Positions 4,476 through 26,891 are shown, counted from the first letter of the stretch. The stretch: DNA of 64,000 nucleotides from an uncultured Acidobacteriota bacterium (GCA_963779415.1 CAVZYA010000001.1:1664001-1728000), one strand, 5' to 3'. Notes: a model not told the origin generated them from the letters alone. Numbers and translations are program-made.

Positions 4476-4536
4476 GGCGAACCCCCTCGGCCGGCACCCC
4501 CCCTCCCCAAAAGGGGACGGAATCATGCCGTCCGTA

Positions 4537-7597: not shown

Positions 7598-8659
7598 GTG
7601 GCCACCGCTTTGGGAGACCCGCCGAAGGTCTCCGTCATCGTCCGAACGAAAGACCGCCCGGACCTCCTTGCCGAGGCCATCGGGAGCCTTTGCGCCCAGA
7701 CGTTCACGGACTTCGAAACGCTCGTCGTGAACGACGGCGGCACGATCCCCGAGGCGGCCTTCGGGCCGGCGCCGGGGCGGGGACTCCGGATCGTCCTCCC
7801 GGAGCCTCCGGGGGGACGCGTTCGGGCGCTCAACGCGGGCCTCGCCGCCGCCCGGGGAACGTTCATCGCCTATCTCGACGACGACGACGTCTACCGGCCA
7901 ACCCATCTCGCGACGCTCGTGGCCGCCCTCGAGGGGGAGGGGGACTTCGGAGCGGCCATCTCCGACGTCGACCAGATCGCGCGGCGGCGGGGTCCGGACG
8001 GGCTCTGGCGGGACGAGGAGCTCCTCTTCCACTACGGCCGCTCCTTCGACGCCGACCGGATCCTCTTCAAGAACGACGTTCCGCTCATCGCCCTCCTGCA
8101 CCGGCGCGATCTCGTCGAGAAGATCGGGCCTTTCGACACGGCTTTCGATCTCTTCGAGGACTGGGATTTCCTGATCCGGCTCTCCCGCGTCACTCGCTTC
8201 CGTCACGTGCCGGAGACGACGGCGGTCTACCGCGTCCGGGACGACGAGACGAATGCCACGAGGGCGAACCCGTGGCGAGGGCCTGTCGCGGAGAAGATGC
8301 GCCGGGCTCTCTTTGCCAAGCATGCGGCCCTCCGTACGCCCGAGGCGACGATGGTCGCGGTGGACGGTTTCGACGGCGCCGTCTGGCTGCAGGAGCAGGA
8401 ACTCCGGGCGCTTCGTGAAAGGCTCGACACTGCCGAGGGACGCCTTCGGGAAGCGGCCGCCCGCCTCTCGCGCCTCGAGTCGCTCTTCAAGGAAGAGCAG
8501 GCCGCCGCCGAGCGGCGCCTCGAGGTGGCGAAGGAGCGCGAGGCGGCGATCGCGGCGGAGCGGGACGCGCTCGAAACCGAGCTTCGAAGGGTCCACGATT
8601 CGCTCTGGTGGCGGCTCGCGACCCCCTGGTGGAAGCTCCGGAGTCTTCTCGGGCGATGA
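7598..8659 (+). CDS. Glycosyltransferase family 2 with C-terminal coiled coil
   Basis: GAGGAGG SD then GTG; VSVIVRTKDR, VVNDGG, YLDDDD, EDWDF; E/R/A-rich coil ending SLWWRLATPWWKLR. Confidence 0.88.
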   Translation: MATALGDPPKVSVIVRTKDRPDLLAEAIGSLCAQTFTDFETLVVNDGGTIPEAAFGPAPGRGLRIVLPEPPGGRVRALNAGLAAARGTFIAYLDDDDVYRPTHLATLVAALEGEGDFGAAISDVDQIARRRGPDGLWRDEELLFHYGRSFDADRILFKNDVPLIALLHRRDLVEKIGPFDTAFDLFEDWDFLIRLSRVTRFRHVPETTAVYRVRDDETNATRANPWRGPVAEKMRRALFAKHAALRTPEATMVAVDGFDGAVWLQEQELRALRERLDTAEGRLREAAARLSRLESLFKEEQAAAERRLEVAKEREAAIAAERDALETELRRVHDSLWWRLATPWWKLRSLLGR

Positions 8660-10679: not shown

Positions 10680-11722
10680 CCTCAGCGAGAGCCCGGCCGG
10701 AGGCGTCCGCGACCGCCCGCGCGTGCCACGGGATCTCGTCGAGGAGCGGCCGAAGGCTCTCCGGCGGCGCGAACGCCCGCTCCTCCGAAGAAAGCGGAGC
10801 CCACGCGAAGACGGCGAAGGAGCGCAGCGGGGAGAGCGCGACTCCGAGGGCCGGCCCCTCCCACGCGAGACGCGCGGCGACGGGAAGGTCGGGCCATGCG
10901 CCGGCCGGCGTCTTCGCGAGCGCCTCGAGCGCCGCCGCGCCCCGGGCGCCGAAGTGCGTCGTGAAGATAGCGGCGCTCGGACTCTCCGAACCAGGCCGTG
11001 GCCCGCGGCTCTCCGCCGGTCGTCCGGCCGTAGGGATGGATGGCCCGTGCCGCACCTACCAGGAAGAGATTTCCGCCGGCGCGCCGGAGACGCCGCTGCC
11101 AGTCGTTCTCTTCGTAGTAGAGCCGATAGCCCTCGTCGAACGGCCCGACGGCTTCGATCGTCCGACGGGAGACCGCCATCAGGGCGCCCGGGATCGCCGA
11201 CACCTCGAGCGTCTCCCGGCGCCACAGCGCCGGCGCGGCGTGCAGGGTTCGCCGCAGGCGGCGCGCGAAGACGCGGCGGGCTCCGGCCGGCTCGAGCGCG
11301 AGGCGGCGGCGCGCGAGGTCGAGCGGCCCGGGCTCCTCGAACGGAGGGATCAGGATCGTCGCTTCGGGATCGAGATAGGTCTTCGGGCCCGCGAGGAGAA
11401 GGGGCCCGCTCCGGACGCACTCCGCGAGCGCGGCGACGGCGCCGGGAAGGACGGAGACGTCCGGGTTCATCAGGAAGAGGACGTCCCCCCGCGCCGCCGC
11501 GATCCCCTGGTTCAGGCCGGCGGCATAGCCGAGGTTCCGCCCCGGGTCGATCGTCACGTCGGCGACTTCCGAAACGGCGCGAACCTCCTGCGGGTCCTGC
11601 GAGTTGACGACCGCCACGGCCTCGAGAAGCTCCCCCGCCTTCGCCGCGTCCTCGCGGAGAAGGGCGATGGCGCGCGCCGTGAGGGGCGCCGAGCGGTAGC
11701 TGACGACGACGACGGAGATCAC
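10663..11722 (-). CDS. Glycosyltransferase family 2 (rhamnosyltransferase-like; frameshift near 11040)
   Basis: ISVVVVSYR, NLGYAAGLNQG, FLMNPD, FDEGYRLYYEENDW. Confidence 0.8.
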
Positions 11723-11771
11723 GCGGCGGAGGACTCCCGGCTCTCCGGCGCTACGGTACACTGCCCTCAGG

Positions 11772-12740
11772 GTGGCTGTCCTCGTCCGCCTCGCGGAGCC
11801 TCGAGACCGCGCCGCGATCCACCGCCTCTTCCGAGCCGCTTTCGGCTCCGACGCCGACCTCGCCGTCTGGGAGTGGAAGTACGACCGGAACCCGAACCCG
11901 GCCCCGTCGGCCGTCGCGATCGAGGGAGACCGCGCCTTCGGGTTCTACGGCGGTTGCGGCACGCGCTACCGCGGCGCGGCGGGCGACTTCCCGGGCGCCT
12001 CCGCCGTCGACGTCATGACCGACCCGGAGGCGCGCACCCTCGGGCACCGGTCGCTCTTCCGCGACGTCGGAGAGGAGTTTTGCCGCCTCTGCCGGGAGGC
12101 GGGGATTCCCTTCTACTTCGGATTCCCCAACGAGCGCGCCCGGATCATCGGCGAGCGGACTCTCGGCTACCGCTCCGTGGAGCCGGCGGGTCTCTCGGTG
12201 CGCCTCATAGGCTTGCCGACGCTGTACGGGCGGCTCCGGCGCCGCCTCCTTCGCACGCGGACCGGTGCGTCCTTCTCCGCCGGACACGACGCCCTCGCCG
12301 ACGCGATCCATGCTCGCCCCGGATGGCGGACGGACCGCTCCCGAAGGACGCTCGACTGGCGCTTCTCGCCGCACGCCGGGACGGCCTACCGGATCGTGGA
12401 GCTGCTCGATGGGCGAGCGGCGTCGCGCGGCTACGCCGTCGTCCGTCTCGTCCTGGAACGGGCGCTCCTCGTGGACATGGAAGTGCGGGACGAGGAGTCC
12501 GGGGACGTCGGGGACCTTCTCGAGGCCGTCTCCGGCTCGCTCGAAGGCTCCGGCGCCACCCGTCTGGAGCTTCGGGCCGCCGCCTCCTCGCGCCTCGCGG
12601 CGCGCCTCGAGGCCGAGTTCGGCTTCGCGCGCGAGCCTTCCGACTGCCACTTCGAGATCCGCCCCATCGACCCGGGCTTCGACGCGCTCGCCGCCGGGCG
12701 CGCCTTCGACTACCGCTTCGCCGACCACGAGATCTTCTAG
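11772..12740 (+). CDS. GNAT family acyltransferase
   Basis: WEWKYDRNP, AVDVMTDPEAR, YFGFPN; resembles Acetyltransf_9-type proteins of glycan loci. Confidence 0.8.
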   Translation: MAVLVRLAEPRDRAAIHRLFRAAFGSDADLAVWEWKYDRNPNPAPSAVAIEGDRAFGFYGGCGTRYRGAAGDFPGASAVDVMTDPEARTLGHRSLFRDVGEEFCRLCREAGIPFYFGFPNERARIIGERTLGYRSVEPAGLSVRLIGLPTLYGRLRRRLLRTRTGASFSAGHDALADAIHARPGWRTDRSRRTLDWRFSPHAGTAYRIVELLDGRAASRGYAVVRLVLERALLVDMEVRDEESGDVGDLLEAVSGSLEGSGATRLELRAAASSRLAARLEAEFGFAREPSDCHFEIRPIDPGFDALAAGRAFDYRFADHEIF

Positions 12741-13735
12741 CCCCGGAAGATCGCCTCCAGCCGGTCGAGGACGGGCCCGAGGCGGAACGTCGCGGCCACC
12801 TCCATCCCCCGGCGGCGGCGGGCTCTCCAGAGGCTCTCGTCGTCGAGAAGCCGCACGGCCTCCCGCGCCATCGCGGCGTCGTCCCCCGGCGTCACGAAGG
12901 TCGCGGCGTCGCGAGGAATCGGAGCATACGAGGGGATCTCCGTCAGGATGACCGGCGTGCCCGAGGCCATCGCTTCGAGCGGCGGGAGCGGGAAACCCTC
13001 CGCCTCGAAAGACGGGTGAATGAGGAGGTCGAGGCCCCGGTAGAAACCGGCCATCTCCGTGACGCTCGCGCCGTGACGGTAGAGATCGCTGGCCAGGAGA
13101 ATCCGCTCCGCCGGGGACTCGGGAAGCTGGCTGGCCCGATGCAGCGTGACGGCCCGTCCCGAAGCCTTCAGCCGCGAGATTGCCGCGAGGGCGACCGGGA
13201 TCCCCTTGTTGGCGGCTTCGAAGGGCCCGACGACGCCGATCACCGGAGGCCGGCGCGGCCCGTCCGGCTCCGGCCCGGCCGGACGGTAGTCCTCGGGCCG
13301 GATGGCCTGTGGCAGGACGTGATAGGGCCCCGGATACCGTCCCTCGAAGAGTCCGAGGAGATGGGCCGAGATGAGGAGCTTCGGGATCGGCTGCCCGTAG
13401 GCCTCGTCGATCTCCTTCCGGCGGTGGGCCGTATTCGGATAGATCGCTTCCCAGCCCTGGCTGAAGTGAAAGATCTTCGGCGCAAGCCGGGCGCGGACCG
13501 TCGGGACGACGGTCGGGAACCAGGTGGCGACATGGACGTCCGCCGGGGGAATGGTCGATGCGTCGAACTGCGCCACTTCGGTCACGGGGACCCGGATCGG
13601 GATCCAGGGGTGCCGGGAGTCCCGCGTCACGATGGAGACTTCGTGGCCCCGGGACGCGAGTCCCTCGGCATGCTCGATGATGACCTTCACGCCCCCCGAG
13701 ACTTCCAGGGATTCGACGACGTAGACGACCTTCAT
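12737..13735 (-). CDS. Glycosyltransferase family 4 (WsaF-like)
   Basis: SGGVKVIIEHA, VATWFPT, EGFPLPPLEAMASGTPV. Confidence 0.9.
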   Translation of the reverse strand: MKVVYVVESLEVSGGVKVIIEHAEGLASRGHEVSIVTRDSRHPWIPIRVPVTEVAQFDASTIPPADVHVATWFPTVVPTVRARLAPKIFHFSQGWEAIYPNTAHRRKEIDEAYGQPIPKLLISAHLLGLFEGRYPGPYHVLPQAIRPEDYRPAGPEPDGPRRPPVIGVVGPFEAANKGIPVALAAISRLKASGRAVTLHRASQLPESPAERILLASDLYRHGASVTEMAGFYRGLDLLIHPSFEAEGFPLPPLEAMASGTPVILTEIPSYAPIPRDAATFVTPGDDAAMAREAVRLLDDESLWRARRRRGMEVAATFRLGPVLDRLEAIFRG

Positions 13736-14925
13736 TCCGGATTCATCCGGCCCCAGACGATGGGGACGGACATCAGTCCGACCCGCCAGGTCGCCGACTC
13801 GACGTGAAACGTCTGGTCGCTCCGGGAGTCGTAGAGGGCGAGGGCGTTCTCGTCCCCGATGTAGGCGTGAACCACGAACTCGCCCTTCCCCAGCGGAAGC
13901 GCGTCGAGGCCGATCCGGACCCGGTAGCGGTCTTTTCCGACGAAGGGACCGATGCCGTCGAGACGCGAATCGGCCGAGAAGCAGACGACGTTGTCGCGCG
14001 TGGAGACCGCGAAGTGGATCTGGAGCGGGCGCGTCGCCTCGTCCGGAGAGAAGTCCAGCTCCACGCCCCACGGCTCTCCCGGGCGGAACTCGCTCCGGGG
14101 GGCGCCGTCCGCCCCGACGACCCGGACGTCCCGGAAGCGCGCGTGCGACTCCGCCTGCGGCGCGGCGTGCGGCGGACGCGATTCCTCCTTCGCCGCGAGG
14201 TACTTCTCGTATTCGAGGACGACTCGCTGCGCGTCGCCCTCGCCCGCCACCGAGCCTTCGCGGAGCCAGATCGCTTCGTCGCAGATGGTCGAGACGTAGT
14301 ACATCGCGTGGCTGCAGAAGAAGATCGTCCGCCCCGAGGACTTCAGCTCGAGGATCCGGTCGACGCACTTCTTCTGGAAGCGCCCGTCCCCCACCGCCAG
14401 CGCCTCGTCGAGGATGACGACGTCCGGGAGAGCCGCCGTCGCGACGGCGAAGGCGAGGCGCATCTGCATCCCCGAGGAGTAGGTCTTCACCGGCCGGTCG
14501 AAGAACTCGCCGAGGTCGGCGAATGCCTCGATCTCCGGAAGGGCCGTCCGGACCTCCTCGCGTGAAAGGCCGGTCAGGGCGGCCTGAAGCATGACGTTCC
14601 GCCGCCCCGTCTCCTCGGGATGGAACGAGGAGCCGAGCTCCAGGATCGACGCGACGCGCCCCGGGACGTGGACCGTTCCGGACGTCGGCGCCGTCGTCCC
14701 GGCGAGGATCTTGAAGAGCGTGCTCTTTCCCGATCCGTTCTCCCCGATGAGGCCCAGAACGGCGCCGGGAGCGACACCCCCCGAGACGTTCCGGAGGGCA
14801 TGCACCTCCGCATGGCGGGGGCGCCCCGTCGCCGCCTCCACGAGCCGGTCGCGCGGCGTCCCATAGATCCGGTAGACCTTGCTGACGCCCGAAAAGCGGA
14901 TCCCTTCCCTCTCCATCGCCGGCAT
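13732..14925 (-). CDS. wzt: Polysaccharide ABC exporter ATP-binding protein with Wzt_C domain
   Basis: GENGSGKST, YSSGMQMRLAF, ILDEALAVGD, plus C-terminal carbohydrate-binding extension. Confidence 0.93.
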   Translation of the reverse strand: MPAMEREGIRFSGVSKVYRIYGTPRDRLVEAATGRPRHAEVHALRNVSGGVAPGAVLGLIGENGSGKSTLFKILAGTTAPTSGTVHVPGRVASILELGSSFHPEETGRRNVMLQAALTGLSREEVRTALPEIEAFADLGEFFDRPVKTYSSGMQMRLAFAVATAALPDVVILDEALAVGDGRFQKKCVDRILELKSSGRTIFFCSHAMYYVSTICDEAIWLREGSVAGEGDAQRVVLEYEKYLAAKEESRPPHAAPQAESHARFRDVRVVGADGAPRSEFRPGEPWGVELDFSPDEATRPLQIHFAVSTRDNVVCFSADSRLDGIGPFVGKDRYRVRIGLDALPLGKGEFVVHAYIGDENALALYDSRSDQTFHVESATWRVGLMSVPIVWGRMNPE

Positions 14926-14931
14926 GTTGCC

Positions 14932-14961
14932 AAAAAAATGGCCCGGGCGGGCGCCCGGGCC
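14932..14961 (-). terminator. Intrinsic terminator after the giant protein gene
   Basis: Minus strand GGCCCGGGC-loop-GCCCGGGCC followed by ATTTTTTT. Confidence 0.75.
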
Positions 14962-15006
14962 TGAACGAGGGATACGCCCGATTATTCGGGCCTGGGGAAA
15001 GGGTTC

Positions 15007-18000
15007 CTATTGCTGGGGGCGGCCCACCATCACCATCGAGTCGCCGGTGACGTTGTCATTGATCGACGCGTACGCGCCGATCGTGCCGCCCGTGACCTGG
15101 ACCTCGATGGAGTACTTGTTTCCGGTCCCGAAGTTCGTGATCGCCGGGAAGAGGTTCTCGAGCGACCGCTGGACGAAGGGCTCGGCGGACGTGAGGGATA
15201 GGGTGGTCCCCAGGAGGGGAGGCCCGCCGGAGTTCTGGTAGAGACGCACCTGCGCGGTGCCGGTCGCCCCCGAAAGGAGGACGAGGGCCACGTTCGTCCG
15301 GAAGCCGCCGGCCCCGCCGTTCGGAACCGCGCGCGGGATGAGGAGGCGGCTCGCCGCGCCGGGCGCCGCCGAGGCCCCGTGGATGGCCGCGACGAACCCC
15401 GGTACCTGCGTTCCGAAGTTCCCGGTCGGCGTGGCGTTGTACGTCTCGGCGCGGACGAGGAGCGGATCGGTATCCAGATCCGCGGGCGCGATGTCGATCC
15501 ACGACGTCGTGTAGTCGGTGTCCTCGTGGACGACCACGTCGTTCTGGGTGAGCCACTCCTTCACGAAGTCCTCGAAGACGACCGTCTGCCCGGCGAGGAG
15601 GGTGATGTTTCCGGCAGACGTTCGACGCGGATCGCACGTGGAGGTTCCCTGGACGCACTTCAGGTACGAGAAGGAGAGCTGCACCGTGCGCGCTGCTGAC
15701 GACGGGTTGAACATCACGAATCGGCTCCGGAAGAGCGCCCCGAACTGCCCGTTCGCCCGGACGACGGCCGGGACGCGGTAGCTCGTAGCGATCGACCCGT
15801 CGTTCGTCATGAAGACGGAGTCGGACGAGCCGATGTCCTTGAGCGACGTGTAGGGGACGACCGTTCCGCCCCCCGCCACGCTCACCGTCATGAAGTAGTT
15901 GTCCTCGGGCTGGCCGACGATGTCCCACGCCGCTCCCGTCGGGACGGGGCTCGTGAGCGCCTTCGTGATCTGCCTCGTCTCGTTCGGCTTGAGCGTGAGG
16001 GTCACCTCCGAGCCGAGCTTCTGGAAGAGCGTCGCGAGGCTGGAGGAGTAGAAGTTGACCTTCAGGGTCGTCGAAACGTCGCCGGGGTTCACGAAGCCGA
16101 CGTTCGTGTAGGCCGGGGAGACGTTCGGATAGGAGACGAGCGGGCTCCGGCTGGAGAAGTCCGGAACGTCCCGCAGGCCCGGAAACTCCGTGAGAGCCCC
16201 GGACGAGGCGGACGAGATCGCCTCCGAAAGACGAACGGCCGGGATCGCGACCCCGTAGGTTCCCTTCGTCGGGTCGCCGCCGTTGTTGTTGTACGTGGAG
16301 GCCCAGATCACCGGCGTGGCGCTGTCCGGGATGACGTCGCCCCTGACGATGAGCGCCGTGGCGGGTCCTCCCTGGGCCTTTGCGAACTGGCTCTGGAGGA
16401 TGTTCGTGTAGCTGCGGCTCTCCATCGGCGAGAGCGTGATCGACCTCGTGACGGAGGCCGGGAACGCTCCGTCGGCGAGCGAAAGCGAGAGGCTCATCGG
16501 CTGCGTCGTGCTCGGGTTCTGGATCACGACGTCCGAGACGTAGAACGAGTTCGGCAGGACTCCGGAGGCGTACGCCAGCCCCGGAACGATCCACTTCGGC
16601 GTATAGCTGGCGACGAACGTCGTCGGGAGCGGGGTCGTGAACGTGCTGGCGCCGAGGGTTTCCGTCAGGACGACCGTGTAGCTCCCCGGGGCCGCGTAGG
16701 AGTGCGCGACGTTCGGTCCGGAGCCGGCCGGCGTCCCGTCACCGAAGTTCCACGAGTAGGTTGCGGCGAACTGCTTGTCCAGCGGGACCTGAAAGAGGAT
16801 CACCCGGCCCGGGTCGACGTGGTTCGGGTCGAGGGGACCGCCGTCATACGAGAAGAAGGAATACTCGCCCGTCGGGACCCCCGCCACGGGGAAGACGGCG
16901 TGCGAAACGCTCTGGCTCCCGAATGTCAGCGTGACGACGCGGGGATCCAACGTCGAATAAACATGAGACGTCGGATTCACGGTGTCCGAGCTTCCGTCTC
17001 CGAAGTTCCAGGAGAGGGCCCCGGAGAGCGGCGTCGTCGTCCCCTGCACGACGCCCGTGAAGGTCGTCGACCGCCCCACGACGACGAGGAAGCTCCCGTC
17101 GGTTCCGGGCGCGATGCTCGGGCGTGTCGCGTCGGAGAGGATGAATTCGGGCACCTGCATCGTGCCGCTGATCAGGATGCCGAGGCTGATCGAAAGCGTC
17201 GTGTTCGTGACGGTGGCCGTCCCGGGAGCGAGCGGCGTGAAGGTGAACGCACTCCCGGTTCCGGACGAGGGGCTTGCATTCACGCCGGTCACGGTCCAGT
17301 TGTAGCTTCCCGACTGCTGCACGGAGCCCTGGAAGATGCCGACGGTGATCGCGGTTCCGGTCGTTCCGGTATAGGGCGTCGAGCAGCCGCCGAAGGTGCA
17401 GGGCGACGCCCCCGATGTCGGTGCCATCACGTTCGTCGGCCCTGCGGGGGCCTGAACGTTGATCGTCCTGTTCCCTGTTCCCGAGGCCCCCAGGGAGTCG
17501 GTCACCGTGCAATGGACGTAATAGACCCCCACCGTGCCGTACGTCTTGTTGATGCTGGCGTAGGGAAGGCTCACCGGCGAGCCTCCGTCCCCGGTGTCCC
17601 AGAGGTACGCGGTGTAGCTCCCCGACCCGCCCGTGGCGGCCGCCGTGATCGTGATCGGGGTCCCGGCGGTCGGGCTGTAGCTCGTCGCCGAGAGCGTGAC
17701 GTTCACGGTCCCGCCGCCCCCGCCGCCGCCGCCTCCGACGAGCATGACGAGCGGGCTAGGCAGCGGCGTGATGCCGCTGGTGACGTTGACGTTGATCGTC
17801 CCCGCTGCCGTGGGGGTGAAGGTGAAGGTGGTCCCCGCACCCGAGGCGGAGGAGGCCCCGGTCACCGACCACGAATAGCTCCCCGTCTGCTGTGTCGAGC
17901 CCTGGAAGAGGGCGACGGTCAGAGGAGTCCCCACGGTTCCCGAATACGGCGACGGGCAGCCGCCAAACGTGCACGACTGATACCCGGCAGTCGGAACGAT

Positions 18001-20454
18001 CGACGGAGGGCTGGTTGACACGGTGACCGGCCACGCCGTCGGATCGCCCACGCCGGAGACGTTCGGCTGCCACTGGACGGTCTTGACAGTGCCGTTCGTG
18101 TACTGCACCTTCACCCGGAGCCAGTACGTCCCCGCCGTGGAAGGAGAGGGAATGGTAGTGGAGCCGCCGGAGAACGAGAGCGGAAGGTAGCTCCCCTCCG
18201 TACACGAACCGGCCGAGGCATCGCAGAGGTTGTAGGAGTAGCTGATGTTCGTGCTGCTCCCCGGCTGCGACTGGTTCGTGATGTTGATGGTCCCGCCGAC
18301 ATAGGCGGTCCCGGCGGCAGTGAACGAGGCGACGAAGTCGGTGACGTTTACGACGAAGGAGCCAGCCTTCGGGAGGGTGCAGGGGCTTCCGCAGTCCGGG
18401 GAGGTGTACCCGCCTGCGTACGAGGCGGTGAGCCAGGCGTTGTAGCTTCCATTGGCTGAGAACGGGTGAATACAGGAGGCGCCGGTGCAGCTGCTATCCA
18501 GCGTCAGCGTATCGGACGAGGGCGCCGCGGGGTTCGTCCCGAAATACCACTTGTATACGCCGGAGGTCGGGTGGCCGTCCGAGCCGTCGGTGAAGGTTGC
18601 CGAGCCACCGTTCAGAAGCGCCGAAAGGTTCTGAACCTTGACGGCAGGGACCTTCCAGACGATGTTGAACTGCGCGAGGGGGACTGTCGTCGTGTTGAGA
18701 GCGTTTTCGGCCTCAAAGGCGATCGGGAGCGTGGCGGTCGTCCCTGCCGCCGGTTGCGCAGAGGTGAAGTCACCATTACCGCCGCCGGAGGTGGGTCCCA
18801 CGGATGTCCAGCATCCGGCGCCCGTAGCCGGGTTCCCGCTTTTTCGCGGGTCGCACGGACCAACGAGGGGGAAGGTGGGCGGGTCAGGGTTGCCCGGAAA
18901 AGGATTCGCGCAGCCACTAAGGCAGGCGTCGGGATCTGCGAGCTGCATGAGACCGATCGACCCCGTCTCCGTGGAGGAGTGGTAGTCGAGGTCGAGGTCC
19001 CATCCCGTGACTGCCTGGACCGCGCTCGACGGGGTGACGGAGGGAGCGACGGAGAGCGTATCGCCGACGAAGACGGTCGCGCCGCTCGAGAGCGACGCCC
19101 CGCCGGCGGAGGTGTTCGTGACGGCGAGATGCCCGGTCGCGGGGGTCGGCCCCGCCTGACAGGTGAACTGCGCCGCGAAGGCGTTCACCCCGTCGACGAA
19201 GTACCCGTAGAGATTCGTCTGGCTCGAACGGAGCGACGCCATCTGCGAAATGCTCTTCAGGCTGTTGCCGCCGGAGGTGCTGACGTCCGCGTGGGTGCCG
19301 ATCGCCGTGCCGAATACCTTTGCCGACGTCGCGTCGAGGCGAAGCGTCAGCGTCGTCGGGTTGTAGAACCACATGAAGACGTCGACGTCGCCGCTGTACG
19401 GATTCACCGCGAGCCAGCCCGGCGAGGCTCCGGCGTACTGGCTGAAGGACGAATCGGACGTCGTGTACGGCGGGAAGGTCTGGACGACCGTCTGGGTCGG
19501 CGGGTTGTAGAGGATCAGGGCGAACGAAGGGTTCCCCGTTGAACTCCGGAAAGCGCCGAGAAGGTAGAGCTTGCCCGTCGCCTGGTCCACCGCGCCCGAG
19601 ACCGCGATCAGGACCTGCCCCGCGTTCTGGAAGGCGCTCGCGGGAACCGTCGAGACATGCAGCGTCGAACCGATGCTGCCGGCGGGGCCGGGAGTCGAGG
19701 CGTCGATGACGACGACGTTCTGGCCGTCCTTGGCGTAGAGGTACTGGAAGTTTCCGTACTCCGCGTAGCTCAGCCCCAGCGCGGAGGAGCTGAAGTAGGA
19801 AAGCGTTTCGTGCGAAATGTTTCCGACGGTGTATCCGGGGGTGTTCGTGACGTCCGCCGCGTAGAGATGCCCGAAGCCGTCCAGCTCGTACGCGATGTAA
19901 CGCGAGCCGTTCTTCTGGACCACGAGCCCGTTCGTCGACTCCGGAGTGGAGATCGATCCCATCGCCTGGAAGCCCGACCCGTTCGGGGTCTCGACGACGG
20001 TGCCGGATCCTCCTCCACCGCCCGCTCCGGGAAGATGAAGGGAAAGGAGGGCGCGCTGGCCGTCGGCCGCGACGCCGTATCCCCCGACGTAGTTCTGCCC
20101 GTCTCCGGACACCGTGCCCGGCCCCGTGGGGTCGAACCGGAGATCGTCGAGGACGAGCTGGCTCGGAGTCGCCGTGCCCGCCGTCCCGAGGTCGTAGACG
20201 TTGTATCCCCAGGTCATCGGCACCATCAACCGGTTGTTGCTGCCGCTCTTGTAGAGGCCGACCCACCTCCCCAGAAGCGCCTGGCGGAGCACGGTGCTGC
20301 AGCCGCTGCAGGTGACGATGTTCGGCCCGGAGACGAGCTGGCATTGAGCCGAGGCCGGAGGGGCACTCGCTGCCGCCACCGCGAAAACAGCGAAGAGGAC
20401 GAGAAGAGCCCGACCGATACGGCTGACGCCCACGCGAAGATTCGATCCTGTCAT
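15007..20454 (-). CDS. Giant secreted PKD/Ig-like surface protein (1815 aa)
   Basis: Signal peptide ending PPASA-Q; Ser/Thr/Gly rich; PKD signatures WDTGDG and WNFGDG x2; four C-terminal beta-sandwich repeats. Confidence 0.88.
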   Translation of the reverse strand: MTGSNLRVGVSRIGRALLVLFAVFAVAAASAPPASAQCQLVSGPNIVTCSGCSTVLRQALLGRWVGLYKSGSNNRLMVPMTWGYNVYDLGTAGTATPSQLVLDDLRFDPTGPGTVSGDGQNYVGGYGVAADGQRALLSLHLPGAGGGGGSGTVVETPNGSGFQAMGSISTPESTNGLVVQKNGSRYIAYELDGFGHLYAADVTNTPGYTVGNISHETLSYFSSSALGLSYAEYGNFQYLYAKDGQNVVVIDASTPGPAGSIGSTLHVSTVPASAFQNAGQVLIAVSGAVDQATGKLYLLGAFRSSTGNPSFALILYNPPTQTVVQTFPPYTTSDSSFSQYAGASPGWLAVNPYSGDVDVFMWFYNPTTLTLRLDATSAKVFGTAIGTHADVSTSGGNSLKSISQMASLRSSQTNLYGYFVDGVNAFAAQFTCQAGPTPATGHLAVTNTSAGGASLSSGATVFVGDTLSVAPSVTPSSAVQAVTGWDLDLDYHSSTETGSIGLMQLADPDACLSGCANPFPGNPDPPTFPLVGPCDPRKSGNPATGAGCWTSVGPTSGGGNGDFTSAQPAAGTTATLPIAFEAENALNTTTVPLAQFNIVWKVPAVKVQNLSALLNGGSATFTDGSDGHPTSGVYKWYFGTNPAAPSSDTLTLDSSCTGASCIHPFSANGSYNAWLTASYAGGYTSPDCGSPCTLPKAGSFVVNVTDFVASFTAAGTAYVGGTINITNQSQPGSSTNISYSYNLCDASAGSCTEGSYLPLSFSGGSTTIPSPSTAGTYWLRVKVQYTNGTVKTVQWQPNVSGVGDPTAWPVTVSTSPPSIVPTAGYQSCTFGGCPSPYSGTVGTPLTVALFQGSTQQTGSYSWSVTGASSASGAGTTFTFTPTAAGTINVNVTSGITPLPSPLVMLVGGGGGGGGGTVNVTLSATSYSPTAGTPITITAAATGGSGSYTAYLWDTGDGGSPVSLPYASINKTYGTVGVYYVHCTVTDSLGASGTGNRTINVQAPAGPTNVMAPTSGASPCTFGGCSTPYTGTTGTAITVGIFQGSVQQSGSYNWTVTGVNASPSSGTGSAFTFTPLAPGTATVTNTTLSISLGILISGTMQVPEFILSDATRPSIAPGTDGSFLVVVGRSTTFTGVVQGTTTPLSGALSWNFGDGSSDTVNPTSHVYSTLDPRVVTLTFGSQSVSHAVFPVAGVPTGEYSFFSYDGGPLDPNHVDPGRVILFQVPLDKQFAATYSWNFGDGTPAGSGPNVAHSYAAPGSYTVVLTETLGASTFTTPLPTTFVASYTPKWIVPGLAYASGVLPNSFYVSDVVIQNPSTTQPMSLSLSLADGAFPASVTRSITLSPMESRSYTNILQSQFAKAQGGPATALIVRGDVIPDSATPVIWASTYNNNGGDPTKGTYGVAIPAVRLSEAISSASSGALTEFPGLRDVPDFSSRSPLVSYPNVSPAYTNVGFVNPGDVSTTLKVNFYSSSLATLFQKLGSEVTLTLKPNETRQITKALTSPVPTGAAWDIVGQPEDNYFMTVSVAGGGTVVPYTSLKDIGSSDSVFMTNDGSIATSYRVPAVVRANGQFGALFRSRFVMFNPSSAARTVQLSFSYLKCVQGTSTCDPRRTSAGNITLLAGQTVVFEDFVKEWLTQNDVVVHEDTDYTTSWIDIAPADLDTDPLLVRAETYNATPTGNFGTQVPGFVAAIHGASAAPGAASRLLIPRAVPNGGAGGFRTNVALVLLSGATGTAQVRLYQNSGGPPLLGTTLSLTSAEPFVQRSLENLFPAITNFGTGNKYSIEVQVTGGTIGAYASINDNVTGDSMVMVGRPQQ
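17200..18005 (-). repeat. Duplicated ~75-aa Ig-like module (CTFGGC...FQGS.QQ.GSY.W.VTG...FTFTP) flanking a PKD domain
   Basis: Two copies visible in the translation at about 17780-18005 and 17200-17430. Confidence 0.8.
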
Positions 20455-20656
20455 CTGGTTTCCCCCTGATTCCCTCGAATGGAGCCCGCCCGAGGGCGAG
20501 CGATCAGAAATGGAACCTTCAAAGCGTACCGGGACTTCCCGGAGAACGCAAACGGCGGCTCCCGGGACCGCACGCGTGCCACAGGTCCTGTTCGACTCCA
20601 TTCGACCGTAGTGGCGATTTCGCCGGCGATCTTTCGCCCGTAAGTCCCATCCCGAC

Positions 20657-20693
20657 AAAGAAAAAAGGCGGGCGGCCCTGAGACCGCCCGCCC
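20657..20693 (-). terminator. Intrinsic terminator after the S-layer-like gene
   Basis: Minus strand GGCGGGCGGTC-TCAG-GGCCGCCCGCC followed by TTTTTTCTTT. Confidence 0.88.
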
Positions 20694-20718
20694 GTGGGGA
20701 TGAGAGTTGAAACCCTGG

Positions 20719-22398
20719 TTACTTCGTTGTGGGGCGGACCGCCTTGAGTGCCTGCGTGCCGGCATCGAAGGAGATCGGCGGGTTGCAGTTGAAGTCGCCG
20801 TTGAGGTCCGTGCCCGAGAGGCCGACGCTCAGGAGCGAGCCCGGTCCGGAGTGCTGGACGCCGACCCAGGCCTGGTTGTAGTTGCTGCTGTAGCCGCTGC
20901 CGGCTCCGCCGTTGCGGAAGTAGAAGTCCATCCAGCCCGAGTACCAGCTGTTCGGGGAGAGCGAGCTGTTGCCCCATCCCGGGATGATCTCGAGGTTCCC
21001 GGTGCCGGTCGCAGCGATCCAGAGGGCGATGCGCTGCGTCTCGAGGAAGACGTAGTTGTAGTAGTTCGGCGGCTGATAGCCGGACGGTCCGCCGGACTGC
21101 GGCGAGCTGTAAGAGTCCTCGTCCTCGTCCCACGACGTCCAGTTGAGCTGGTGGTTCGCATCGTAGAAGCCGTCGCCCGCGGCGCCCGCTTCCGTCTTCA
21201 GCCAGTAGCAGAGGTCGACGCCGGAGTTCGCATAGACGTCGCCACGCCAGACCATGATCCAGGAGCGGGTCTGGTCCGTCGGGCTGGCCAGGAAGCGCCA
21301 GCCCCAGTGGTCGCCGAGAGGCTCGCGGCCGTCGCCGCCGAAGACGAAGTCAACCGGGACAGCCGGGTTGCCGGCCGAGACGCCGCCCGTCCGCTCGGCG
21401 GGAGCGCCGGTGCCACCGGAGATCGCGGCCACGAAGCGCCCGAAGAAGGTCCCCGGAGCGCCGGTGTAGCCGTCAAACAGCGGGTCGGTCCAGTTGAGAC
21501 GCGTGTCGAACTCGAGGGCAACGGCCGGATCGCCGCTGATGTTGCCCGCGCTTCCGGCGGTGTTGTCGACGTAGAAGACGTCGCCCATCAGGACGTTCGG
21601 CGTGTAGCCATAGCTGGACCAGCCCGACGTCGCGATCGCGTCGTACTGGTAGAACTCCTGCTGATAGGGGAACCAGTTGGTGCAGTAGTTGACGACGTCG
21701 ATCGTCAGGTAGCCCGAGAACTCGCCCGAGCCGGAATAGGTCTGCCCCGCAGACCCCTTTCCGCAGGCCGGGTTGTCGGAGTCGAGGATGAACGCGCCGC
21801 TGGAGGCCTGGAACTCCGTGATGTCGCCCGACTCGTCAAGGGACTGCATGACGGTCGTGCGGAAGAGCGAGAACGCGTCACCCGAGGAGTACTTGGAGAC
21901 CGCGTACGGCCAGTCATTCTGCGTGCCCGTGTTCGAAAGCGGGTGAGCGAAGCGGATGTAGTCGGTCTGGCCCCAGCCGATCCAGGGCGATGCGTCGTAC
22001 GTCGTCGGCGATCCGAGCTTGACGCCGCAGACGTCCTTGACCGGGAGGACCTGCGTGAACGGGTTCACGTTCAGGTTGCCGTTGAGGACGCCGCTCATGT
22101 TGAACGTCACGACGTCCTTGCCGGTCATCGGGACGTTGAAGTCGAGGACGGCCCGCGAGTACTTGTTCCAGACCGTGACGTGGGCGATGATGCCCGGATA
22201 CGACACGTTCACGAACGCGATCTTGGTGTCGGTACCGACGCTCGTGATGATGCCGGCCGAGTTGACGGTGCCGCCGACCCGGAAGTACGGAACGAGCAGC
22301 GTGGCGCCCGGCACGTTGTCATACGCGCAGGTCACCGCGAAGCCCGTGCCCGCGACCGCCAGAAGGGCGAGCGCAACGAGGACGGAAAGCTTCTTCAT
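20719..22398 (-). CDS. Putative major surface/S-layer protein (559 aa)
   Basis: AGGAG SD; signal MKKLSVLVALALLAVAGTGFA; mature start VTCAYDNVPGATLLVPYF; strongly biased codons (AAC/TAC/TTC/GGC); own promoter and terminator. The S-layer role is inference. Confidence 0.8.
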   Translation of the reverse strand: MKKLSVLVALALLAVAGTGFAVTCAYDNVPGATLLVPYFRVGGTVNSAGIITSVGTDTKIAFVNVSYPGIIAHVTVWNKYSRAVLDFNVPMTGKDVVTFNMSGVLNGNLNVNPFTQVLPVKDVCGVKLGSPTTYDASPWIGWGQTDYIRFAHPLSNTGTQNDWPYAVSKYSSGDAFSLFRTTVMQSLDESGDITEFQASSGAFILDSDNPACGKGSAGQTYSGSGEFSGYLTIDVVNYCTNWFPYQQEFYQYDAIATSGWSSYGYTPNVLMGDVFYVDNTAGSAGNISGDPAVALEFDTRLNWTDPLFDGYTGAPGTFFGRFVAAISGGTGAPAERTGGVSAGNPAVPVDFVFGGDGREPLGDHWGWRFLASPTDQTRSWIMVWRGDVYANSGVDLCYWLKTEAGAAGDGFYDANHQLNWTSWDEDEDSYSSPQSGGPSGYQPPNYYNYVFLETQRIALWIAATGTGNLEIIPGWGNSSLSPNSWYSGWMDFYFRNGGAGSGYSSNYNQAWVGVQHSGPGSLLSVGLSGTDLNGDFNCNPPISFDAGTQALKAVRPTTK

Positions 22399-22571
22399 GT
22401 TTTCTCCTACCAGTTTGTTGATAATTGAAGTGAAGCCCGTTGACAGGTCGTCGTTCGCCCGAACGCGATAGGAAATCACCTCCGGTACTTTATTTAAAAG
22501 CGGACCTGGAGCCGCCTTACTCATCGCAACTATCCTCTTGGAAAGGAAGATTTCCGGCATCACTGGCGGAT

Positions 22572-22600
22572 ACGTTAGGGGCGAAATTCGGGAAAGTCAA
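22572..22600 (-). promoter_or_regulatory. sigma70-type promoter of the S-layer-like gene
   Basis: Minus strand TTGACT-17bp-TAACGT in an AT-richer intergenic region. Confidence 0.65.
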
Positions 22601-22636
22601 GGGGTTCTCCGAAAATTATGCTTTCTGCCCATATGA

Positions 22637-24382
22637 TCACTTGGAGGGCAGATTCCGGAAGAACCGGAACCCCCCTTCCTTCGTCTCGCTGACCGTCATG
22701 TACTGCAGCATCAATACGATATCGGGTCTGCCATCGCCATCCACGTCGGCAATCCGGATGGCCGTGGGGAAGTTCACGAAGGAAGGCTCGAGAGCCGGGT
22801 CCAGCTCTTCGAACTCTCCGGCTGGAGTCTGGAAAAAGACGCGCACCTTGTTCGTCACCCGGTCGGCCACGACGATGTCGTCGAGCCCGTCCCCGTCGAG
22901 ATCCGCCACCGCGATTCCGGGTGAAATGCCCCGATTGCTCCCGAGACGCTTCAGGACGCGGTGGCGCTTCCACTCTTTCCCGTCGCGGTAGTAAATGGAG
23001 AGCCCGTCGCCTGTCGGGTCGGGCAGTCCCCCCGCGGGCCGGTTCTTGAAGTACGAGGTGAAGGCGGCCGGGTGCCCGTGGTACGTCCCTACGGCGGCCC
23101 CCATTCCGACCGAGAAGAGTTCGACGACCCCGCCGCTGACATTCCTGAACGACATCGCGCCGCGGTCGAACTCGTAGAGGAGGTTCACGCCCATCGAGTA
23201 GTTGCAGCTCGTGGCGAAAAAGGGAGCGCCCTTGTCCGCCGGACGGGTTTCGAGGCCGATCGAGTAGCCGTAGCACGGCTTGTCCTCGAGGCCCGCGACC
23301 AGCTCGACGAAGCGGTCGCCCTTGTTGATGTAGGCGCGGACGTCGTATCCCTCGATGTAGCCGCTCGGCCGGGCGCGAGGCTTGTCGACCGCGGCCGCCT
23401 CGGGCATGTCGGAAAGGACGAGGACGTCCGGCTTGCCGTCCCCGTCGAGATCGCCGACGGCGAGCGCGCGGGTAGAGATCTCCCCCGAGAGCCCGTTGCG
23501 GGAGAGCCGGAACTTCATGTCACCGAGATTCCGCCCCGCCCAGACGCCTCCCCCGTGCCCTCCCCAGACGATGTCGGTGCGGCCGTCGCCGTCGAGGTCC
23601 CCGGTCGCGATCGCCCCGTAACCGATATGGAGGGATTCCGGGTTTTCGAGCTGGGGGGTCACCGACCTCCAGCGTTCGCCGTCCCACTTGAAGATCCGGA
23701 GGCCCTCTCCGGAGAGCCGCGGCGGCGGGGAGATGATCTCCGGCCGACCGTCGCCGTCGATGTCTGCGAGAGCGAAGTTCTCGCGCCAGATCCCCCCCTT
23801 GGGGAGGCCCGCGGAATGGCTCTCGAGAAGGATCTTCTTCTTCGAGATCTTCGGCGTGACGATCTCGGCCTCCTCCTTCGGCAGCTCGAGGATCTGCGGA
23901 AGCGCGGCGTCCGCCGCTTCCTTCTCGGCACGCTTCTTCGCGATCTCTTCGGGCGTCGGCGGCGTTGGAGCCGCGACGTAGAAGTTCTCCGCATCCTGCC
24001 GGACGATCGGAACCCCGGTCTGGGTCGGAACGTTGGCGCTGAAGAGGCTCCCGTCCCGCTCCACGAGAGTCGGATCCTTCGGGACCCTCAACAGCCTCTG
24101 CCCCGTGGAGGGGTCCGTGATGGTCTCGATCTTCTTCACCGGCTTTACGCCCTCCTCCTCGTCGTCGTCGGGAGGGGCCGGGGCCTGCGGTTTCTTCGAT
24201 CCGAGAACTGAGTCGGAGAACGCCCGTTGCGCGCTGCCGGCCGGCGCCGGGGCCGGCGTCGGAGTCGGGACGGCCGCCGGGGTGGGCTTCGGCGCGCTCG
24301 CCTGCGGCGGTGGCGCCTGCGAGCAGGAAGCCACGAGAAGGACGCAGAGAGCGACGGAGAGAAGCCGGGGAACGTTGCTCAC
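22637..24382 (-). CDS. FG-GAP/VCBS repeat lipoprotein
   Basis: Lipobox LVAS-C, Pro/Ala linker, five D[IVL]DGDGxxD-like Ca-binding repeats. Confidence 0.88.
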   Translation of the reverse strand: MSNVPRLLSVALCVLLVASCSQAPPPQASAPKPTPAAVPTPTPAPAPAGSAQRAFSDSVLGSKKPQAPAPPDDDEEEGVKPVKKIETITDPSTGQRLLRVPKDPTLVERDGSLFSANVPTQTGVPIVRQDAENFYVAAPTPPTPEEIAKKRAEKEAADAALPQILELPKEEAEIVTPKISKKKILLESHSAGLPKGGIWRENFALADIDGDGRPEIISPPPRLSGEGLRIFKWDGERWRSVTPQLENPESLHIGYGAIATGDLDGDGRTDIVWGGHGGGVWAGRNLGDMKFRLSRNGLSGEISTRALAVGDLDGDGKPDVLVLSDMPEAAAVDKPRARPSGYIEGYDVRAYINKGDRFVELVAGLEDKPCYGYSIGLETRPADKGAPFFATSCNYSMGVNLLYEFDRGAMSFRNVSGGVVELFSVGMGAAVGTYHGHPAAFTSYFKNRPAGGLPDPTGDGLSIYYRDGKEWKRHRVLKRLGSNRGISPGIAVADLDGDGLDDIVVADRVTNKVRVFFQTPAGEFEELDPALEPSFVNFPTAIRIADVDGDGRPDIVLMLQYMTVSETKEGGFRFFRNLPSK

Positions 24383-24449
24383 GAGGACTCCTTGTCGGCG
24401 CATCGATCCCGCGGGCCTTCGGCCGCGCGGGAGAAGAGAACGCCGGATT

Positions 24450-25217
24450 CTAGAGCAGGTCGGAAAAGAGGGGCCGGCTCCGCCGGAAGAGCCGGTGGCA
24501 GGCCGCCGCAAGGAGGAGGAACGCAACGGACCAGCCGAGCAGCCGCCACACCGGCGGGAGCGGTCCGCCGAAGAGGGAGGCCCGGAAGAGGGCGACGAGG
24601 TCCGCGATGGGGTTCAGGGCGAGAACCGGCGCGGCGAAGGAGGGGAGGAGCGAAGCCGGATAGAGGATCGGCGACAGGTAGAGGACGACCGTCAGGATCG
24701 GCGAGATCATCTGAGCCAGGTCGCGGAAGAAGACATCGAGCGTCGCGAGCAGAAGGCAGGGCCCCGCGAGGAGGACGACCTCGAACGCGAGGGCGAGGGC
24801 GAAGACGGCCGGCCGGATCTCGCCATGCCCGAGGACGAGGACGGCCACCCCGAGAATGCCGATCCCGATGAGCTCGAGGACGAGAGCCGCGGCGACGCTC
24901 GACGCCACGAGGAGCTCCACCGGGAACTGGAGCTTCTTGACGAGATGACCCTGCTCCGCGATCGAGGTCGTCGACCGGGAGACCGCTTCCTGGAATCCGA
25001 GCCACGGAAGCAGGCCCGCGAGAAGGAACTCGGCGTACGACCCTCCGAAACCGGACGGCGCATGGGTCTTGAGGACGGCAACGAAGAGGAACGTGTAGAG
25101 GCCGCAGAGGATCAGCGGGTTCAGAAGGGCCCAGAGCGGCCCCCCGAAGCTCCCTGCGTACCGCGTCGAGAGGTCCCGCCGCAGCAGCTCCGAAAAAAGG
25201 AAGAGGACTCGTCTCAC
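24450..25217 (-). CDS. wzm: Polysaccharide ABC exporter permease
   Basis: RDLSTRYAGSFGGPLWALLNPL, LVKKLQFPVE, FFRDL, YLSPILYP, FSDLL. Confidence 0.92.
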   Translation of the reverse strand: MRRVLFLFSELLRRDLSTRYAGSFGGPLWALLNPLILCGLYTFLFVAVLKTHAPSGFGGSYAEFLLAGLLPWLGFQEAVSRSTTSIAEQGHLVKKLQFPVELLVASSVAAALVLELIGIGILGVAVLVLGHGEIRPAVFALALAFEVVLLAGPCLLLATLDVFFRDLAQMISPILTVVLYLSPILYPASLLPSFAAPVLALNPIADLVALFRASLFGGPLPPVWRLLGWSVAFLLLAAACHRLFRRSRPLFSDLL

Positions 25218-25289
25218 GCTCAAGGGGCGTCTCCCCCGGAGAGGCCGCCTCGTGAGAGAATAGCGTGTCCTTCGGGAGGCGAACCGCCC

Positions 25290-25754
25290 GTGCCACCGTC
25301 CAAGAGCAGCCAGATCCGGCTCGTCGGACAGAAGATCCGGCAGATCCGGAAGAGCCGGCACCTGACGCAGTCGGACCTCGCCAAAGAGATCGGCGTGACG
25401 CAGTCCGACCTTTCGAGGATGGAGAACGGCGAGTACAAGGTCGGCCTCGACGCCCTCTTCAAGATCCTTCAGATCTTCGAGCTCTCGATGAGCCAGTTCT
25501 TCGGCGAGCCGGTGCCGGCCGAGGCGTCGCCCGCTCCCGGGGCGTTCCCCGGGGACTCCGATCTCGCGCGCGACTGGGAAGCGCTCTCCGTCGAGGCGCA
25601 GCGGGAGGTCCGCGAGTTCGTCGCCTTCAAGAAGCTCCAGACCGAGTTCCGGCGGCCGGTTTCGCCCCCGGAGATTCCTCGTGCCGTTTCCCCGAAACCG
25701 GAGCCGGAAAATTCCGTTCCGCTCGGGGACGACGAGGAAGAACCCGAAATCTGA
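25290..25754 (+). CDS. XRE-family HTH transcriptional regulator
   Basis: VGQKIRQIRKSRHLTQSDLAKEIGVTQSDLSRMENGE; GGAGG SD; divergent from wzm. Confidence 0.88.
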   Translation: MPPSKSSQIRLVGQKIRQIRKSRHLTQSDLAKEIGVTQSDLSRMENGEYKVGLDALFKILQIFELSMSQFFGEPVPAEASPAPGAFPGDSDLARDWEALSVEAQREVREFVAFKKLQTEFRRPVSPPEIPRAVSPKPEPENSVPLGDDEEEPEI

Positions 25755-25782: not shown

Positions 25783-26783
25783 TCAGATTCCGTCCGGGAG
25801 ACCCGCACGGGGGTCGCCATCGTAGAGATGGGAGAACGTCTCGGCCGCGGCGCGCCCGTCGGCCGTCTGCCGCCTCGGAAGAACGACGTGGACCCGATAG
25901 TAGTGGTCGCCCGGAGCGGACGCTCGCGGATTCGAGATGCCGTACCCCTTGAGTCGAAAACGCTGGCCGCTCGCCGTGCCGGGGGGGATCTTCGCGCGGA
26001 CGGGACCGCGGATCGTCGGGACCTCGATCTCCGCGCCGAGATACGCTTCGGAAACCGTGACCGGGACGTCCGCGTTGATGTCGTCCCCCTCGCGGCCGAA
26101 GTAGGGGTGCGGCTCGACGGTGAGGGAGAGGTAGAGATCGCCCTCCTCCGTCCGCCCCTTGCCCGGGAGACGGATCTTCGAGCCCGTCGCGACGCCCGGC
26201 GGGACCCGCACGGTCACCTTCTCGTTCTCGACGAGGCTGCGCGAGCCTCGGCAGGCGGGGCAGACGCCGCCCCCCGCGCGGCCGGTTCCGTTGCAGCGGC
26301 GGCACCGGCGCGAGAGCCGGGCCCGAGAACGTCACGGTCCCCCCGAGGACCGCGTCGCGAAAAGGGATGGTCAGTTCCGCCGCCGCGTCCTCGTCCTCTT
26401 CCTCGGCTCCGAAGGGGATTCCGCCGAAACCCCGGCCCCTCACCCGAACGGGAAAAGAGCTCCGAAAAGAGGTCGCCGTAGTCCCCCTGCCAGTGGAATG
26501 CCCCTCCGGCCCCCGGGGCGCCGCGGAACGGCCCGCCCGCGCCGGGCGGTGGCCCCGCCGGAGGAACGGTGCCCGTCTCGCCCGTCCGGTCGAAATGCTC
26601 GCGCCGCTTCGGATCCTTGAGAACTTCGTATGCGGCCGCGATCTCCTGGAACTTGCGCTGCGCGGAGGCGTCTCCGGGGTTCACGTCGGGGTGGTGCTTC
26701 CGGGCGAGCCTGCGGTAGGCCTTCTTGATCTCCGCGTCGGTGGCGCGGCGATTCACTCCGAGTACTTCGTACGGGCTTTTCAT
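25783..26783 (-). CDS. dnaJ: DnaJ/CbpA-like co-chaperone (frameshifted)
   Basis: J-domain YEVLGV...HHPDVNPG; CRRCNGTG and CPACRGS; C-terminal VPTIRG...IPPGT. Confidence 0.8.
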
Positions 26784-26891
26784 GAAGAAGATCGCGCCCA
26801 AAGCGCGGCGTCGGACCTAAGATTAGACCGTGGCCGCACGCAGGGCCAGACCGCCTTTCGAAAATCGACCCGGACGGCGGTGGGAGCGTTC

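Follow-up and report, generated by a model that had tools for sequence, protein, structure and literature searches.

Surface layers (S-layers) of diderm bacteria are typically tethered to the O-antigen of lipopolysaccharide (LPS), and in Caulobacter and Campylobacter fetus the subunit binds by a conserved part at its N-terminus (PMC8559796). In the O-antigen cluster of Aeromonas salmonicida, wzm and wzt enclose the S-layer gene vapA together with its secretion genes (PMC4483657). A second described type is the slg cluster of Geobacillus stearothermophilus NRS 2004/3a and Paenibacillus alvei, which contains a Wzy_C transferase, WsaB or WsfB (PMC2943079). Here we analysed a 64,000-nucleotide stretch of DNA from an uncultured Acidobacteriota bacterium of the class Thermoanaerobaculia (hereafter the window, G000:C1:1664001-1728000), in which wzm and wzt are separated by genes for three secreted proteins, among them a 559-residue protein termed p559. 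We propose, with confidence slightly below even, that the locus encodes an abundant coat-protein system held non-covalently on an exported glycan, in the manner of Aeromonas salmonicida.

Among the described systems, the Aeromonas A-layer resembles the locus in several respects: the host is a diderm, the gene of a ~50-kDa S-layer subunit with a signal peptide lies within a split wzm/wzt pair, and the O-polysaccharide is made by the ABC-transporter pathway (PMC4483657). The likeness is one of gene layout, p559 being only a candidate S-layer protein that is likened to VapA by position. The initial annotation of the window had stated that no such layout was described in a diderm, which vapA of Aeromonas salmonicida, lying between wzm and wzt, contradicts (PMC4483657). 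It had also taken an LPS O-antigen identity of the glycan as a refutation of an S-layer, an argument that fails given that O-antigen is the typical tether of S-layers in diderms (PMC8559796). The two loci differ in content and in distribution. The Aeromonas insert contains about ten type II secretion system genes, whereas the present locus has none and carries genes for an FG-GAP lipoprotein and a giant PKD protein instead; and the Aeromonas layout has been described as an insertion within one species, whereas the Thermoanaerobaculia layout is common to a class.

An N-terminal anchor, a variable remainder and non-covalent attachment to O-polysaccharide, as in RsaA of Caulobacter crescentus and SapA of Campylobacter fetus, are proposed for p559, and searches of the PDB found no sequence or fold relation of p559 to these proteins. 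RsaA and SapA leave the cell by type I secretion and lack a signal peptide, in contrast to p559 with its Sec signal; the sap family consists of paralogues with a shared N-terminus, which the p559 paralogues resemble. The Aeromonas A-layer is tethered by O-antigen. Export of the Escherichia coli O9a type likewise combines an ABC-2 permease with a Wzt_C-bearing ATPase, with glycosyltransferases and a methyltransferase nearby, but in the window wzm and wzt are parted by three secreted-protein genes. The slg clusters share with the locus Wzm/Wzt, glycosyltransferases and what may be a methyl-capping logic with chain-end recognition by Wzt (PMC2943079). There, however, wzm and wzt are adjacent or one open reading frame (ORF) apart, the hosts are monoderms and the Wzy_C transferase lies inside the cluster, whereas here the pair is split by 9.5 kb, the host has LpxC and no Wzy_C gene is present at the locus.

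The exporter and the split layout are of known kinds. In the literature searched, no description was found of the locus or of the Thermoanaerobaculia cell envelope; nor were the families of p559, the giant protein and the lipoprotein, the class-wide age of the layout or the leader box reported below described there.

Three secreted-protein genes between wzm and wzt

The host genome comprises 4.36 Mb in 3 contigs, with ~70% GC. The genes at the centre of the locus are as follows.

24450-25217, minus strand: wzm, the ABC-2 permease of the glycan exporter (PF01061 ABC2_membrane, 54.3 bits; cut-off 26.9)
22637-24403, minus strand: FG-GAP lipoprotein gene (FG-GAP_3 125 bits, FG-GAP 82 bits)
20719-22398, minus strand: p559 gene, for a 559-aa secreted protein and candidate coat subunit (signal peptide; without Pfam or NCBIfam family)
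15007-20451, minus strand: gene of the giant PKD protein, 1814 aa (PKD, 78 bits)
13732-14925, minus strand: wzt, an ABC ATPase with a C-terminal carbohydrate-binding domain (ABC_tran 77.9 bits, Wzt_C 43.2 bits)
25290-25754, plus strand: gene of an XRE-type helix-turn-helix (HTH) regulator, 154 aa from a GTG at 25290 (HTH_3, 52.6 bits)

All of these genes, and the glycan genes downstream of wzt, were confirmed where the initial annotation had placed them, with the PKD protein measuring 1814 aa. In place of the usual adjacency of wzm and wzt, 9.5 kb separate the two, containing only three genes and two terminators. Matches of wzm to the KpsM and Wzm/RfbD families of NCBIfam were weak and below cut-off. 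The FG-GAP gene starts 46 nt after the wzm stop codon, and its product has a signal peptide ending in the lipobox LVAS-C, a Pro/Ala-rich linker, a charged region and a C-terminal beta-propeller with DxDGDG repeats. The XRE gene, whose start was picked among the in-frame starts, is divergent from wzm at 72 bp from the wzm start; small HTH_3 orthologues are also divergent from wzm in loci L020, L021 and L027.

Genome-wide, four Wzt_C matches were found, three of them over the Pfam cut-off, and the wzt of the window is one of the four. This exporter is thus not the sole one of its type in the cell and can be dedicated to the cassette. The genome also encodes LpxC and has two secretin matches (C2:1513934 and C1:1316787), which makes an LPS-bearing outer membrane and a secretin-based export route possible.

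Conservation of the locus in Thermoanaerobaculia

Relatives of p559 were found in 38 of the 41 genomes of the order that were searched, a tally that includes the unpublished G025 and G030; the genomes without a match were G001 (75% complete), G009 (96%) and G038 (51%). About 19 kb around the match was taken from 20 genomes representing three families of the order and compared with the window proteins. The series from a DnaJ gene through wzm, FG-GAP and p559 to the giant-protein gene, on one strand, was present in all 20 loci. A class-level sample of eight loci from other orders kept the wzm-FG-GAP-p559 order in seven cases, giving 27 of 28 loci overall, and the FG-GAP gene likewise directly follows wzm in 27/28. 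The giant protein has an orthologue in every order-level locus and a match in four of the eight class-level loci. wzt lies within the compared span in 22/28 loci (16/20 at the order level and 6/8 at the class level), on the opposite strand in two of the class-level loci.

These results indicate that the tightest linkage is that of wzm with the lipoprotein and p559 genes, while linkage of wzt is common but breakable. The layout is ancient and conserved; its recurrence in 27/28 loci cannot be put down to chance, and the synteny rules out a recent insertion or foreign DNA. By the synteny check that the initial annotation had set, the association of the three genes for secreted proteins with wzm/wzt and the glycosyltransferase genes is genuine and old. 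In a phylum-wide sample of 301 genomes, including the unpublished G025, the p559 profile matched 25 at E <= 1e-10, with 21 in Thermoanaerobaculia and 4 outside the class.

Several loci show variations on the layout. L120 (G312:C1:2398000-2417500) has the FG-GAP gene and three p559-like copies followed by an adjacent wzm-wzt pair, which shows that the cassette can sit beside an unsplit exporter. L018 (G014:C2) contains two tandem giant-protein paralogues at 8673-17663 (1675 and 1298 aa), where one is found elsewhere. In 10/20 loci the giant gene is separated from wzt by a radical-SAM/SPASM gene, confirmed by Pfam in 3 (examples are L023:13694-14791, L027:13584-14654 and L014:2805-4373). No such gene was detected in the present genome by tblastn, so that in this genus the module can do without radical-SAM modification of p559.

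Expression signals of the p559 gene

The p559 gene is flanked by signals of its own, and a further hairpin precedes wzt.

22572-22622, minus strand: putative p559 promoter, with a AGCATAATTTTC element, TTGACT (-35), a 17-nt spacer and TAACGT (-10), read by eye
22476-22483, minus strand: GGAGGTGA box in the ~160-nt p559 leader, ~80 nt upstream of the start codon
20666-20693, minus strand: intrinsic terminator of p559, with a 12-bp stem (10 GC pairs) and a T-run, directly after the stop codon
14940-14961, minus strand: terminator-like hairpin between the giant gene and wzt, with 9 GC pairs and a T7 run

The initial annotation had assigned p559 a promoter and a terminator of its own. The 12-bp GC hairpin and T-run at 20693-20666 bear out the terminator, and an equivalent hairpin with a T-run occurs 3' of the p559 gene in 20/20 loci. 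The promoter likewise stands as a reading by eye: the TTGACT-17-TAACGT match covers 22600-22572, a simple consensus scan listed no promoter there, and the A/T element and the TTGAC of the -35 box are nearly invariant in the 20-locus alignment of relatives.

The leader carries a second conserved element. The GGAGGTGA box is identical in all 20 aligned loci (the window and L011-L029), a second Shine-Dalgarno sequence stands at the p559 start itself, and in the window no start codon follows the box at working distance. A structured, riboswitch-like leader was ruled out: the leader folds no better than shuffled sequence (z -1.14), and Rfam gave no match to it. Agaisse and Lereclus reportedly introduced, in 1996, the STAB-SD concept of an mRNA stabiliser. 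Judged by its sequence and position, the GGAGGTGA box may be a STAB-SD-like mRNA stabiliser outside Firmicutes.

Codon usage was ranked by the codon adaptation index (CAI) among 2371 ORFs, with 26 genes for ribosomal proteins, elongation factors, IF-1 and RpoA as the reference. The CAI of p559, 0.731, equals the median of the reference genes and falls at the 89th percentile, compared with the 58th for wzm, the 35th for the giant gene and the 30th for the FG-GAP gene. Taken together, the p559 gene appears to be built like a high-output structural gene, and we infer very high expression.

The p559 protein and its family

Mature p559 has 538 aa, a mass of 57.8 kDa, an acidic pI of 4.3 and 16.9% Ser+Thr. 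A Sec signal peptide with an AxA cleavage motif was found in 19/19 orthologues, and the mature N-terminus reads V/I-T-C. The invariant Cys follows [AG][VI]T and is preceded by the AxA signal-peptidase I site, and p559 was judged unlikely to be a lipoprotein. The absence of any Pfam or NCBIfam family means that no recognised anchoring domain (SLH, CWB2 and the like) is present. Searched against PDB sequences, the p559 profile gave 0 matches at E <= 10, and Foldseek with the p559 model gave 0 PDB matches at E <= 0.001. The AlphaFold2 model has a predicted local distance difference test score (pLDDT) of 82 and a predicted template modelling score of 0.87, with residues 17-25 below pLDDT 50.

Conservation is concentrated at the N-terminus. 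Mean column identity is 0.59-0.86 over residues 1-100 and 0.26-0.70 over later residues, the best conserved stretch being the signal peptide and residues 21-100, and many paralogues have only the first ~115 positions in common. By analogy, this bipartite build of a conserved N-terminal part and a divergent remainder matches the anchor/lattice logic of S-layer proteins.

The family comprises 1602 representative clusters at E <= 0.001, of which 354 also pass E <= 1e-30. The module is duplicated in some members, and in some it is joined to PKD, BACON or Calx-beta, all extracellular-type domains. The best 80 genomic relatives all come from metagenome-assembled genomes, labelled Thermoanaerobaculia, Acidobacteriota or Holophagales except for three oddly labelled bins. 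Some genomes contain tandem arrays of p559 paralogues; L112 (G032:C113:3500-12000) has four secreted ones of 426-441 aa, with a PAATLLLPYFEVD-type N-terminus and without the N-terminal Cys. A homodimer prediction for p559 (residues 22-520, two copies) scored 0.06 against a mark of 0.42, with no controls run, and gives no evidence either way.

Fold resemblance between p559 and the giant protein

The giant protein has a mature mass of 182 kDa and 23.5% Ser+Thr, and consists of an N-terminal region, PKD/immunoglobulin (Ig) repeats and a conserved C-terminal array of beta-sandwiches. Its C-terminal 545 aa were modelled at pLDDT 85.7, and Foldseek returned for them only generic arrays of Ig or macroglobulin domains, with TM scores near 0.1. 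An exhaustive structural scan of 48,161 chains gave the same top two chains for both proteins. For p559 these were 1nc7 (TM1070; Z 7.6, root-mean-square deviation 3.0, 110 residues aligned) and 2ii7 (ASRT; Z 5.2), with the next unrelated row at Z 3.6; for the giant C-terminal domain they were 1nc7 (Z 11.3, 113/116 aligned) and 2ii7 (Z 8.2), followed by the next row at 7.1. Some 125 inserted residues break up the sandwich in p559. Sugar binding is predicted for the ASRT superfamily, which has cell-surface and extracellular lipoprotein versions (PMC2739507).

From these models, the p559 core and one domain of the giant protein resemble each other in having a TM1070/ASRT-like fold of predicted sugar-binding type. 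The match of both to ASRT/TM1070 (PF07100) is structural, without a match at the sequence level, and a PDB profile search with alignment A2 found 2ii7 only at E 1.5. A likeness of the two proteins in a 'VPxx...TxxxxxN' motif, seen by eye, was not supported by BLASTP or hhalign and was discarded.

A candidate coat held on an exported glycan

In the system that we propose, the locus would be the core of a class-wide envelope module of Thermoanaerobaculia. Glycosyltransferases would make a polysaccharide on a lipid carrier, and Wzm/Wzt would export it, with the end of the chain recognised by the C-terminal domain of Wzt. The p559 gene, with a promoter, a long leader and a terminator to itself, would yield large amounts of protein; exported by Sec, p559 would serve as the major S-layer-like coat protein, bound non-covalently to the polysaccharide by the TM1070/ASRT-like sandwich core in its conserved N-terminal part. 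The giant PKD protein, which has a domain of the same fold in its C-terminal part, would be a minor component on the same glycan, and the FG-GAP lipoprotein a membrane tether or assembly factor. Gene content, the conserved linkage, the signals for expression and secretion and the resemblance in fold are observations; the abundance of p559, its surface location, glycan binding, the lattice and the role of each protein are what we infer from them. An anchored coat fits better than a Geobacillus-type glycoprotein because of the conserved N-terminus, the shared sugar-binding-type core, the expression design and the fixed place beside wzm.

A number of points weigh against an anchored coat. The abundance of p559 is read from sequence proxies, among which the 89th CAI percentile is high and not extreme. 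The structural match at Z 7.6 lies within the 'common' range of the tool; hhalign between p559 and the giant C-terminus gave a probability of 1.1% and BLASTP nothing, and no Pfam match to ASRT (PF07100) was obtained at the sequence level. In the alignment of 61 p559 sequences, 47 columns are invariant, with Asp, Glu, His and Arg frequent among them, and at least five cysteines are conserved. S-layer proteins do not usually show such a pattern, which would also be in keeping with an enzyme or a protein that binds calcium. Unlike the Aeromonas insert, the wzm-wzt cassette holds no secretion genes. wzt lies outside the compared span in four of the 20 order-level loci (G021, G017, G008 and G011) and in 2/8 class-level loci; three of these four order-level genomes have a 65-66% identical wzt orthologue on another contig, and G011 has wzt matches of 45% only. 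The hairpin at 14940-14961 ends 15 nt ahead of the wzt ATG, and the wzt start has no visible Shine-Dalgarno sequence.

The first explanation to be weighed against an anchored coat, which we consider unlikely, is that p559 is abundant and secreted but forms no lattice, being a matrix, sheath, fibre, or major periplasmic or outer-membrane-associated protein, and that its placement in a glycan locus reflects shared regulation by the XRE protein and not physical coupling. Self-assembly of p559 is indeed hypothetical, the XRE gene is conserved beside the locus, and the conserved Cys at mature position 3, on a low-confidence N-terminal stretch of the model, could link subunits into fibres. Regulation alone, however, hardly explains a gene order that is fixed beside wzm throughout the order and the class, and the sugar-binding-type fold common to p559 and the giant protein also speaks against this explanation.

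Covalent S-layer glycosylation, in which, on the model of Geobacillus stearothermophilus, an O-oligosaccharyltransferase would attach the exported chain to Ser, Thr or Tyr residues of both p559 and the giant protein, has many of its parts in place. Like slg clusters, the locus has Wzm, a Wzt with a carbohydrate-binding domain, glycosyltransferases and a methyltransferase, and a TPR gene that adjoins the XRE gene in other genera recalls the TPR partners of the Geobacillus and Paenibacillus transferases (PMC2943079). The Ser+Thr content is 23.5% in the giant protein and 16.9% in p559, and six Wzy_C-family genes occur elsewhere in the genome. None of the six is in the window, however; the nearest is ~119 kb away, and no multi-spanning membrane ORF was found at 1-14000. 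In this genus the TPR gene is on contig C2 instead of at the locus, and the known slg clusters belong to monoderms, whereas this genome has LpxC. With the nearest Wzy_C match so far off, the claim of the initial annotation that the glycan decorates the proteins is without support, and we hold covalent attachment to be improbable. Of that earlier reading as a whole, the linkage and the marks of a very abundant secreted structural protein stand; glycan decoration is unsupported, and novelty among diderms falls away.

Equally improbable, in our estimate, is that the three proteins are glycan-handling machinery which receives, processes or translocates the Wzm/Wzt product in the periplasm or outer membrane, the propeller lipoprotein acting as receiver and p559 as enzyme or chaperone. 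The FG-GAP gene follows wzm at 46 nt and stands directly after it in 27/28 loci, p559 has many invariant acidic, His and Arg residues, sugar-binding-type folds are predicted, and no OPX or PCP gene was seen among the window ORFs covered by the general family scans, all of which would suit such a role. What argues against it is expression: p559 forms a separate transcription unit with a CAI at the level of ribosomal proteins, against the 58th percentile for wzm, and this stoichiometry is ill-suited to an accessory of the transporter. Moreover, the 182-kDa PKD-repeat protein resembles surface adhesins and not conduits, and tandem paralogues with variable C-termini suggest an exposed, diversifying protein.

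Returning to the anchored coat, a fuller version of it is possible but doubtful as a whole. In that version Thermoanaerobaculia would possess an undescribed diderm coat in which p559, from an acidic 58-kDa family of new fold, is assembled with the giant protein, bearer of the same sugar-binding-type module, and with a lipoprotein whose propeller is integrin-like, on a capped polysaccharide dedicated to it. The genes of the exporter would have bracketed those of the coat since the class arose, glycan and coat being inherited as a unit, and GGAGGTGA would act as a STAB-SD-type stabiliser. Thermoanaerobaculia have a wide distribution in soil and sediment, and should p559 prove to be their coat protein, it would offer an abundant surface antigen as a marker or target for enrichment, imaging and metaproteomic quantification. 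Structural work on S-layers would also gain a new protein family, and S-layer genes within a split wzm/wzt pair would be known from a second case, a far older one; this would suggest that distantly related diderms pass on a coat and the glycan that anchors it together, as one module.

Flanking genes and further observations

Glycan-related genes continue beyond wzt.

12737-~13720, minus strand: GT4 glycosyltransferase, start approximate (Glyco_trans_1_4, 68.9 bits)
11772-12740, plus strand: GNAT-like gene (Pfam match)
10682-11761, minus strand: GT2 gene (Pfam match)
8608-10140, plus strand: GT2 gene (Pfam match)
2429-3295, minus strand: S-adenosylmethionine (SAM)-dependent methyltransferase, possible chain-capping enzyme (Methyltransf_11, 65.9 bits)

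The GT4 gene comes after wzt in most relatives, and orthologues of the GNAT-like and GT2 genes adjoin the locus there. A third GT2 gene, a PIG-L gene and a GT1-type gene are also found past wzt. The chain-capping role of the methyltransferase is suggested by the presence of the Wzt_C domain. At the far end of the glycan genes, a 468-aa protein (3270-4676, minus strand) ends in a PEGA-type domain (28.9 bits) and has a single hydrophobic segment. No Rfam family was matched anywhere in the window.

In other genera (for example L012:1654-3691), the XRE gene is followed by genes for a TPR protein and a 372-aa unknown protein; in this genus both have been relocated to contig C2 (G000:C2:248102-250068). 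Two genes of the window are broken. A DnaJ/CbpA-like gene (25783-26801, minus strand) lies in two frames, with the J domain at 26214-26801 and DnaJ_C at 25783-26217; it is a single ORF in relatives (for example L012:490-1521), so that the window copy has a frameshift or an assembly indel. A GT4-type gene (5505-6706, minus strand) is apparently split as well, into the overlapping frames 5777-6706 and 5505-5861, and together the two hint at indel errors in the assembly. The first 2000 nucleotides of the window have a GC fraction of 0.60, compared with ~0.70 elsewhere.

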